Shown: positions 54,462-55,467 of the stretch, in pieces
How the letters are laid out: each line of letters opens with the position of its first letter
Numbering within the stretch: position 1 is the first letter of the stretch
Assembly: GCA_964552465.1 (NCBI GenBank)
Contig: CAZKGR010000003.1
Span: 42,726-106,725 of the forward strand
DNA length: 64,000 nucleotides
Source: an uncultured bacterium
Lineage (GTDB): Bacteria; Electryoneota; Electryoneia; Electryoneales; Electryoneaceae
Direction: 5' to 3'
Position numbers and translations under genes: made by a program
The notes under the pieces: generated by a model
What the model saw: only the letters and a program-made list of their open reading frames with translations
Databases searched by the model: none
Told to the model about the DNA's origin: nothing

Positions 54462-54583
54462 GTCATTCTGAGTCCGGCAGCAGCCGGACGAAGAAGATCC
54501 AACTGGACCAGTGTTGCAGCTCTAATAGCAACCAGTATATTAGCTGGATCTTCTTCACTTCACTATGTTCATTTCAGAATGAC
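54462..54583. repeat. MITE-like element with terminal inverted repeats (GTCATTCTGA...GAAGAAGATCC / GGATCTTCTTC...TCAGAATGAC)
   Basis: About 120 bp with an internal hairpin GTCCGGCAGCAGCCGGAC. Lies between glmS and the racemase gene. Confidence 0.55.
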
Positions 54584-54654
54584 ACACTAGGCAACAGAAT
54601 TTATCAGCAACATGTCAGCAGGCCATTGAGCCTGCTGTTTTGCTTGAGGGTGGA

Positions 54655-55353
54655 ATGAAAACTATCGGATTGATCGGCGGGATGAGCTGGGAGAGCACGC
54701 TGCACTACTATCGTCTGATCAACCAGGGGGTGCGTGAACGGTTGGGTGGAATTCACTCGGCTCCGATCAACATGGTCAGCGTCGAATTTCAACACATCTC
54801 AGAGATGCAGCATCAAGGTCGTTGGGATGAAGTAGGTCAAGAACTCGCGAAGGCAGCTCGTACACTGGAAATATCCGGTGTAGATGGTATTCTGATCTGC
54901 ACTAACACTATGCACAAGGTCTATGACATGGTGAGCGACTCCGTGTCCGTGCCTGTATTGCACATCGCCGATGCAACCGGTAGTGTGATCCGAGACAGGG
55001 ATATTCAATCTGTCATATTACTCGGCACACGGTTTACGATGGAAAAGCCGTTCTATCGTGAACGTTTGAAGCGGGAATTCGGCTTGAACGTGATCGTGCC
55101 GGAACAACCTGACCGGGAGTCCATTCACAGCGTGATCTTCGACGAACTGGTACAGGGCAAGATCGTCGATTCCTCACGGGACCATTTCCTCACGATCATC
55201 GAATCGTTGATCGAACGGGGTGGGGAGGGAGTGATTGCAGGATGTACGGAAATCGGGCTGTTAGTGAAACAGGATCAGGTTACGGTGCCATATTTCGATA
55301 CGTTAGAGTTGCATGCGAACGCAGCTGTGGATTTCTTGCTTGAGGTACGATGA
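54655..55353 (+). CDS. aspartate/glutamate/hydantoin racemase family protein (amino-acid racemase)
   Basis: MKTIGLIGGMSWEST start. Second catalytic Cys region (EGVIAGCTEIGLLV). 232 aa. Confidence 0.8.
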   Translation: MKTIGLIGGMSWESTLHYYRLINQGVRERLGGIHSAPINMVSVEFQHISEMQHQGRWDEVGQELAKAARTLEISGVDGILICTNTMHKVYDMVSDSVSVPVLHIADATGSVIRDRDIQSVILLGTRFTMEKPFYRERLKREFGLNVIVPEQPDRESIHSVIFDELVQGKIVDSSRDHFLTIIESLIERGGEGVIAGCTEIGLLVKQDQVTVPYFDTLELHANAAVDFLLEVR

Positions 55354-55367
55354 AATATGAACTGGAA

Positions 55368-55467
55368 GTCATCCTGAACCGCACCGTGAAACGGTGTGAG
55401 TGAAGGATCTCGTAGTTGTCGATTGACCCTGGAGAAAAGCGAGATTCTTCACTTCGTTCAGAATGAC
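55368..55467. repeat. MITE-like element, second copy (GTCATCCTGAAC...GAAGGATCTC / GAGATTCTTC...TTCAGAATGAC)
   Basis: Same terminal-repeat family with an internal hairpin CACCGTGAAACGGTG. Lies immediately downstream of the racemase gene. Confidence 0.55.

Follow-up and report, generated by a model that had tools for sequence, protein, structure and literature searches.

The DNA considered here is a window of 64,000 nucleotides, that is, the whole stretch that was analysed, from the genome of an uncultured bacterium of the phylum Electryoneota (contig CAZKGR010000003.1). In one part of it the order is SprA-like gene, glmS, E1, a gene of the Asp/Glu racemase family, E2 and metG, where E1 and E2 are two short inverted-repeat elements (Table 1). 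A sequence-only reading had placed both elements on either side of the racemase gene, in agreement with the output of a repeat finder, and had taken them for relatives of miniature inverted-repeat transposable elements (MITEs) that bracket discrete accessory genes. Comparison of their parts with one another, with units in public collections and with related genomes leads to a different view of their nature. E1 and E2 are likely to be head-to-head (HH, tags outside) dimers of a hairpin repeat of the repetitive extragenic palindromic (REP) type, belonging to the REP superfamily tagged with CGTC or TGTC or forming a close variant of it, and the racemase gene is, judged by its gene neighbourhood, an old resident of the locus.

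Table 1. Position and composition of the repeat units and of the genes and hairpin around them (window coordinates).
Feature	Position	Strand	Composition	Context and remarks
E1	54462..54583	.	tag-outward (HH) dimer of two hairpin units, 42-nt spacer	glmS 3' region, before the terminator-like hairpin
E1, left unit	54462..54501	+	GTC-ATTCT-GA-[GTCCGGC AGCA GCCGGAC]-GA-AGAAGAT-CCA	-20.0 kcal/mol, z -5.2
E1, right unit	54544..54583	-	GTCATTCTGA-AATGAACATAGTGAAGT-GAAGAAGATCCA	read on the reverse strand
E2	55368..55467	.	tag-outward (HH) dimer, 27-nt spacer	between two convergent genes, racemase and metG
E2, left unit	55368..55412	+	GTC-ATCCT-GA-AC[CGCACCG TGAA ACGGTGTG]AGT-GA-AGGAT-CTCG	-20.7 kcal/mol, z -4.7
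E2, right unit	55440..55467	-	GTC-ATTCT-GA-ACGAAGT-GA-AGAAT-CTCG	minimal unit form, reverse strand
Third site	7368..7437	+	two units, both on the + strand	downstream of a Phd/YefM-ParE module; neighbours by Pfam
SprA-like gene	45614-52387	+		upstream of glmS
glmS	52587..54422	+	611 aa counted from the MCGIIGY start	gene upstream of E1
Terminator-like hairpin	54616..54645	+	CAGCAGGCC-ATTGA-GCCTGCTG, then TTTTG	just 5' of the racemase start; outside the repeat
Asp/Glu-racemase-family gene	54655..55353	+	232 aa, PF01177	between E1 and E2; position conserved in relatives
metG	55515..57437	-	640 aa	convergent with the racemase gene; gene downstream of E2

Alignment of the six arms present in the window shows that the repeated entity is a unit of 28-45 nt and not the whole element of 100-120 bp. 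This unit reads (T/C)GTC-AUYCY-GA-[variable hairpin]-GA-RGRAU-C, and its GTC ends point outward in E1 and E2. It is made of an unpaired 5' (T/C)GTC tag, a 5-bp stem that starts from an A-T pair, a tandem G·A/A·G module, an inner hairpin and an unpaired tail. The inner hairpin is variable and sometimes nested, ranging from 5 to more than 30 nt, and in its minimal form it is GCGNAGC or ACGNAGT, with a mini-loop G-N-A in which N is free; longer units contain stacked purine-rich symmetric loops or nested CTGA...GAAG modules. In DNA, mini-hairpins of the type d(GCGNAGC) and tandem sheared pairs in a Y-GA-R context have an unusually high stability. E1 and E2 are alike in these unit cores only, while their spacers and inner hairpins are unrelated.

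The inverted-repeat structure of both elements survives exact alignment, and the internal hairpins described by the sequence-only reading are present, in E1 as GTCCGGC-AGCA-GCCGGAC and in E2 inside the left arm. In particular, the 10-nt ends of E1, GTCATTCTGA and TCAGAATGAC, are 100% complementary (10/10) according to the repeat finder and its 15-nt inner arms, GAAGAAGATCCAACT and AGCTGGATCTTCTTC, are 93% complementary; the corresponding values for E2 are 9/10 for the ends GTCATCCTGA and TCAGAATGAC and 93% for the 14-nt inner arms AGTGAAGGATCTCG and CGAGATTCTTCACT. Compared with shuffled sequences, E1 folds with -52.8 kcal/mol on the + strand (z -6.9) and -56.7 on the - strand (z -6.1), and E2 with -51.0 and -43.5 kcal/mol on the two strands (z -6.1 and -5.0). 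The proposed pattern GTCATYCTGA...GAAGRATCYC fails for the 3' half of the E1 arms, which in both of them is the variant GAAGAAGATCCA. This unusual variant, shared by the two arms, suggests that the E1 dimer may have formed or moved as one unit. Further deviations are a GA insertion in the stem of the E1 left unit relative to the consensus, a nested and decayed module of the ACGNAGT type as the inner part of the E1 right unit, and an extra 19-nt hairpin within the ACGNAGT loop of the E2 left unit.

The repeat is present at a third site of the window, where the sequence-only reading had rightly seen related half-sites near a toxin-antitoxin module: a degenerate or truncated unit at 7368-7408 is followed by an intact minimal unit at 7409-7437 (GTCATCCTGAACGTAGTGAAGGATCTCTC). 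A GC-rich hairpin, CCCGGGTTCGTTGAACCCGGG, lies at 7326-7357, directly after the gene of the ParE toxin and before these units, and probably terminates the toxin-antitoxin operon. Overall, GTCATYCTGA is found 6 times in the 64-kb window against 0.49 expected, a count reached in no shuffle, and the longer pattern GTCATYCTGA-N5-30-GAAGRATCY is found 3 times against 0.00 expected. All six window units begin their stem with ATYC, and the base that precedes GTC is T in three, A in two and G in one. The units of E1 end in ATCCA and those of E2 and the third site in ATCTC. ACGNAGT itself forms the inner part of the E2 right arm and of the third site, and altogether 4 of the 6 window units carry an inner module of this type, the minority type in the wider sample, which fits a local subfamily that would have multiplied within the genome.

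E2 also distinguishes between two structures that could be under selection. One stem position is C-G in its left arm and T-A in its right arm, so that the hairpin of each arm is intact while the pairing of one arm with the other is mismatched. Because these changes keep the pairs within the arms and break those between them, the selected structure is the hairpin of the unit and not the long pairing of the terminal inverted repeats.

The unit hairpin is a conserved and covarying entity. Covariation was counted on distinct units from 240 loci taken from viral and genome collections, where the variable pair of the outer stem is T-A in 215 cases and C-G in 178, with 13 non-pairs. When the stems are left unconstrained, the same pair is T-A in 83, C-G in 67, G-C in 5 and unpaired in 5, and the remaining stem positions also show compensatory changes, which are rarer. 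Of 312 distinct units, 88% have a Watson-Crick pair as their first inner pair, with G-C, A-T, C-G and T-A all represented. Among 160 distinct minimal units, the base 5' of GTC is T in 128 (80%) and C in 25 (16%), GTC itself being fixed by the search pattern; stem position 2 is T-A in 150 of the 160, whereas the A...T of position 1 is again fixed by the pattern. The tail of the family is C-T(83%)-C(50%).

Pairs with tags outward also predominate in these loci. Another unit lies within 150 nt for 192 of the 446 units (43%), and the pairs formed in this way are tag-outward (HH) in 71 cases, tag-inward (tail-to-tail, TT) in 16 and in tandem (head-to-tail, HT) in 15, with spacers of 2-95 nt in the HH pairs. 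The two arms of a dimer carry the same or different Y/R variants about equally often. According to crude calls of open reading frames (ORFs), 219 of the 446 units are placed between two ORFs and 109 inside one. Single units occur in spacers between tandem genes in 82 cases, convergent genes in 28 and divergent genes in 13, against a background of spacer bases of 66, 16 and 18%, respectively; relative to this background they are over-represented between convergent genes and under-represented between divergent ones. Unbiased clustering of the ORFs within 1.5 kb of units in the 240 loci gave no recurrent gene family or transposase, the only recurring ORFs being phage structural proteins from near-identical contigs.

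The unit is widespread. The collections scanned comprise IMG/VR, one genome per GTDB species, plasmids, records of cultured phages and E. coli genomes. At least 120 stretches of IMG/VR and at least 120 of the GTDB-species genomes contain the unit, and the genome matches listed bear the labels of more than 20 phyla or candidate phyla of bacteria. The titles of these include Chloroflexota, Acidobacteriota, Nitrospirota, Patescibacteria and Bacteroidota (isolates of Gracilimonas and Pedobacter among them), together with Ignavibacteria, Omnitrophota, Bdellovibrionota, Gemmatimonadota, metagenome-assembled genomes of Clostridia and others. Matches are rarer elsewhere: 11 of 72,556 plasmid records (Planktothrix, Calothrix, Oscillatoria, Granulicella, Hymenobacter, Phocaeicola and Novosphingobium) and, as a full unit, 1 of 50,697 cultured-phage records, while the unit is absent from all 5,426 of the 5,426 E. 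coli genomes scanned. The idea of a short dispersed element family is thus borne out by the third window site and by the collections, with the correction that what is dispersed is the 28-45 nt unit. The phage record (MT838150.1, 3008-3035, a near-complete unit) is an unannotated 'Bacteriophage sp.' of 5,630 nt from human faeces, whose genome size suggests a small single-stranded DNA phage. Seven near-identical phage contigs of IMG/VR (L016, L020, L025, L026, L059, L072 and L079) share one match that resembles the unit and has an inner part, GGAGCGCCATTTACAC, forming no hairpin. This match overlaps or adjoins an ORF of 396 aa and is more likely due to chance or decay than a functional unit.

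Known catalogues do not list the unit as far as they were searched. Rfam 15 gives no match in the window at the gathering score; at E<=10 over 54380-55560 it gives only chance hits away from the units, and in eight unit-rich loci only spurious hits to miRNA hairpins. Literature searches by exact sequence or encoded peptide returned unrelated primers or nothing relevant, and the unit sequence is not present in the REP tables of PMC6006769 or in the RepRanger supplements. The unit thus seems to be missing from Rfam and from such literature as can be searched.

The origin of the arrangement around the racemase gene can be judged from four relatives (L330-L333), identified through glmS homologues that are 88, 83, 83 and 81% identical and traced to their contigs. 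The succession SprA-glmS-racemase is kept in all four, and metG and PSP1 follow the racemase gene in three, the contig of L332 ending about 170 nt past that gene. No GTCATYCYGA unit is present at the locus in any of the four, with 12-22 kb examined per locus; the only match to GTCATYCYGA is a 10-mer half-site on its own, which lies within the L333 SprA gene. Since the relatives keep the gene order without the units, the racemase gene is, on this comparison, ancestral to the locus and not an insertion, contrary to the initial suggestion that it could be an accessory gene bracketed by the elements. The same comparison shows the units as lineage-specific occupants, gained in the spacers of a conserved SprA-glmS-racemase-metG cluster.

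The spacers themselves vary widely. That between glmS and the racemase gene measures 91-191 nt in the relatives versus 232 nt in the window, that between the racemase gene and metG 5-238 nt versus 161 nt, and the spacers cannot be aligned even with the nearest relative (88% glmS identity). The terminator-like hairpin is retained, as CAGCAGGCC-loop-GGCCTGCTG followed by TTTTG, in L330 (~11880-11915), L331 (~11990-12030) and L332 (~11945-11975), and L333 has a shorter related hairpin, GCAGGCC...GCCTGC; the rest of the glmS-racemase spacer around it is not conserved. This hairpin is either the terminator of glmS or a cis-element for the racemase gene. Other repeats are found in the spacers of the relatives (L331 12736-12975, L332 12681-12853 and L333 11833-12025), namely tandem repeats of about 50 nt that contain AATCCCGGACTGAAGTCCGAGGGC, the inverted form GCCACGGACTTCAGTCCGTGGC, and runs of the heptamers GTTGTGA, ACTGATT/ACTGACG and CGGTNNN that resemble the short tandemly repeated repetitive (STRR) sequences of cyanobacteria. 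From these sequences, the spacers around the racemase gene appear to be landing pads for several unrelated repeat families. As for the neighbouring genes, the longest glmS ORF begins 24 codons before the conserved MCGIIGY N-terminus (window 52515-52586), while public contigs call the 611-aa form, and the organism encodes type IX secretion components, represented by proteins with SprA_N and Por_Secre_tail domains.

The closest known system is that of the CGTC-tagged REPs, divided into the families CGTC-1 to CGTC-4 (Di Nocera, De Gregorio, Rocco 2013, BMC Genomics 14:522; PMC3733652). As that paper describes them, these repeats have a CGTC tag, with TGTC or CCTC accepted, A-T pairs at stem positions 1-2, tails that are mostly CCA, stems of 8-9 bp and loops of 4-5 nt in families 1-4, with atypical loops in some species; they occur mostly as HH dimers whose spacers measure 20-100 bp, while TT dimers are rare and HT negligible; they are described without association to a transposase, in intergenic positions mainly downstream of genes and between unidirectional or convergent ORFs, and their reported range covers five phyla (PMC3733652). 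The unit of E1 and E2 shares with this description the unpaired 5' CGTC/TGTC tag, the A-T start of the stem, a short unpaired 3' tail (in the window CCA only in E1), the predominance of HH dimers (with the spacers of E1 and E2 falling within the 20-100 bp range), the intergenic position between unidirectional or convergent genes with no adjoining transposase, and the outer sequence GTCATYC...GRATC. It differs from it in its range, which far exceeds the one reported.

Moreover, the two kinds of repeat live side by side. Canonical units of the CGTC-1 type, GTCATTCCCGCGAA(A/G)GCGGGAATC (also GTCATTCCCGCGAA(A/G)GCGGGAATCca), are found near tandem-GA units in three of the loci (L145, L189 and L085) and have CCA or CCAT at their end. 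One such unit, GTCATTCCCGCGAAAGCGGGAATCca, codes for SFPRKRES and VIPAKAGI peptides, both listed for CGTC-1 in the supplement of PMC3733652. In L145, a Nitrospirales chromosome (OZ251550.1), a hybrid tag-outward dimer at ~4010-4170 joins the CGTC-1-type GTCATTCCCGCGAAGGCGGGAATCca to a nested tandem-GA unit. Extra TCAGRATGAC half-sites stand in tandem after this dimer.

Several findings weigh against placing E1 and E2 in this superfamily or against the role that it would imply. With its 5-bp stem, G·A/A·G module and variable inner hairpin, the unit lies outside the published range of stems and loops, and its tail is mostly CTC, CCA being found in the window only in E1. It was placed by the text description of the CGTC families, at the level of the superfamily and not of one particular family. 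The 240 loci were retrieved by a pattern that demands the GA...GAAG core, whose apparent invariance is inflated accordingly. The copy number in the source genome is modest, with three sites in about 81 kb, the roughly 17 kb of this genome beyond the window containing no further sites. No mobilising enzyme was found near the units in the 240 loci, and the six contigs sampled from the source population show no difference over 54401-55560, so that no insertion polymorphism shows mobility directly. With regard to a role at the RNA level, the strand of single units relative to the genes is only weakly biased (49 sense, 33 antisense) and the units show no asymmetry between G·U and A·C. We nevertheless consider membership in the CGTC/TGTC-tagged superfamily, or a position close to it, the probable answer. 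The elements would then be ordinary in kind for bacterial genomes, as REP dimers, and the unit possibly a variant not yet described.

Other explanations account for part of these data. According to one of them, E1 and E2 are classical MITEs, derived from an insertion sequence (IS), with GTCATYCTGA termini bound by a transposase acting in trans and forming a composite that perhaps moves the racemase gene. The terminal inverted repeats are formally present, and length (100-122 bp), intergenic position, strong hairpin potential and membership in a dispersed family are all features shared with MITEs such as the Correia elements and the cyanobacterial Nezha. This explanation is nevertheless highly improbable: the flanks ...GAAACAG|E1|ACACTAG... 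and ...ACTGGAA|E2|TCGTGTC... contain no direct repeat, and therefore no target-site duplication; the elements have neither length-wise similarity, a shared spacer nor a parent IS; the arm of 28-45 nt also occurs singly, about as often as in pairs; compensatory changes keep the pairing within the arms, Y/R mixing between dimer arms being general; no IS or transposase recurs within 1.5 kb of the units; and the racemase gene is syntenic in the four unit-free relatives. This last observation bears equally on a proposal in which the units are targets of site-specific recombination, recognised by a phage recombinase or one of the IS110 type and delimiting cassettes such as the racemase gene. The precedent is dRS3 of Neisseria (ATTCCC-N8-GGGAAT), which the text of PMC3733652 assigns to CGTC-1, with the RPE-6 as well as the RPE-4 repeats of Rickettsia in the CGTC families (CGTC-1 and CGTC-4), and which serves as integration target of the prophage Nf1 and flanks variably present genes (PMC3898611). 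The unit shares with dRS3, the Neisseria intergenic mosaic elements (NIME) and the RPE repeats an outer stem ATTCC...GGAAT and a dispersed, intergenic position often flanking genes; it occurs in many IMG/VR contigs, and in the window a discrete gene is flanked by it. These known repeats are instead without a tandem G·A module, and dRS3 forms arrays of about 700 copies per genome as opposed to the three sites in ~81 kb found here. The sampled population contigs, all identical, give no sign of recombination at the window locus, and no integrase or recombinase recurs near units or is found among the genes called around the window, which makes the proposal very unlikely.

A structured RNA motif that is specific for one strand, in which some conserved RNA-binding protein or RNase would recognise the tandem G·A hairpin and the DNA repeats would be a by-product, has more in its favour and is still improbable. 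Tandem sheared G·A pairs with Y-R pairs at their sides are well-known modules for recognition in RNA, pairs covary around invariant unpaired nucleotides, units lie downstream of genes, and the tagged strand gives their inner hairpins a slight advantage in folding (110 versus 51). Conversely, no Rfam 15 model matches even at E<=10, the orientation to the flanking genes is near random, inverted pairs with one unit per strand predominate, G·U pairs are not in excess over A·C, and the stability arguments hold equally for single-stranded DNA. The remaining explanation, that the unit is a GTAG-type REP mobilised by a REP-associated tyrosine transposase (RAYT, TnpA_REP) encoded elsewhere in the genome, is hardly credible. 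The architecture is the same as in the GTAG REPs of E. coli and Pseudomonas, with their bacterial interspersed mosaic elements (BIMEs) and REP doublets (REPINs), in that tagged imperfect hairpins of 20-40 nt form inverted doublets, about 100 nt in size and folding as long hairpins, in intergenic positions at the 3' ends of genes and with genome-specific subfamilies (PMC6006769), and organisms of the same kinds commonly have genes of the RAYT family (PF01797). The tag of these REPs is GT[AG]G (PMC6006769), whereas that of the unit is (T/C)GTCA, and each of them co-evolves with its own RAYT, while the core of the unit is common across phyla. In 80 metagenomic loci of one RAYT subfamily, the 300 bp on either side of the gene are free of units, and the 344 kb contain only 10; two RAYT-like ORFs were found in the ~1.9 Mb of unit-bearing loci with an approximate E. 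coli RAYT query, neither of them flanked by units; and the window has no PF01797-like ORF. A scan of the viral collection with a RAYT alignment added no contig to those with these ORFs. Metagenomic RAYT proteins (PF01797; RRLPHW...NHVH...YIERNP; P0001-P0120, L250-L329) are overwhelmingly located on very short contigs of 1-3 kb, which would fit flanking repeats, other than the unit, that break the assemblies.

Some further candidates were dismissed, mostly by eye. The hammerhead ribozyme motif CUGA...GAA is present in the unit and the core UGA is missing; a K-turn would have a 3-nt bulge, which the unit lacks; no U-tract follows the units as it would in an intrinsic terminator; and neither Tn7 ends nor Tn7 genes are found at the attachment site of this transposon downstream of glmS. 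The attC sites of integrons (RYYYAAC...GTTRRRY) are excluded by the ends of the unit, GTCATYC / GRATGAC, which have no GTTRRRY core, and by the synteny of the racemase gene in the relatives.

If E1 and E2 are REP-type dimers, their history and activity can be outlined by analogy with better known repeats. Units would spread within a genome as single-stranded DNA hairpins by means of an activity acting in trans, as REPs do with RAYTs. Once in place, they would be transcribed together with the upstream gene. Co-transcription of E1 with glmS is expected, as E1 is placed between the glmS stop codon and the terminator-like hairpin, and E2 would be transcribed from its position between two convergent genes. 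Transcribed units would fold into long imperfect hairpins and probably work as barriers at the 3' end or as aids to termination, in the same way as other REPs. They would not move the racemase gene. To our knowledge, neither a mobilising enzyme nor a dedicated transposase is known for REPs of the CGTC type, the one REP superfamily of which this is so.

A more far-reaching proposal, which we advance tentatively and hold to be rather unlikely as it stands, is that the TGTC-tagged hairpin with tandem G·A pairs represents an undescribed branch of the CGTC REPs that spans most bacterial phyla and whose core of about 20 nt, nearly identical in such distant genomes, is kept by a conserved factor acting in trans. 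If this were true, the candidates for this factor would be the missing nuclease that mobilises CGTC-type REPs and a conserved protein that binds hairpins, and what it recognises would be the GTC tag together with the G·A module.

All in all, the unit is among the most widely shared short non-coding sequences that this analysis could find in bacterial DNA. For annotation, E1 and E2 are best recorded as dimers of REP-type repeats and the racemase gene as one with a conserved place beside glmS and metG rather than as cargo of a mobile element, and the unit is a nuisance in that it often gives rise to spurious peptides such as HPERSEGS or HSERSEES, as obtained from the consensus. Phyletic profiling for the factor that would maintain the unit offers a tractable route to how CGTC-type REPs spread.

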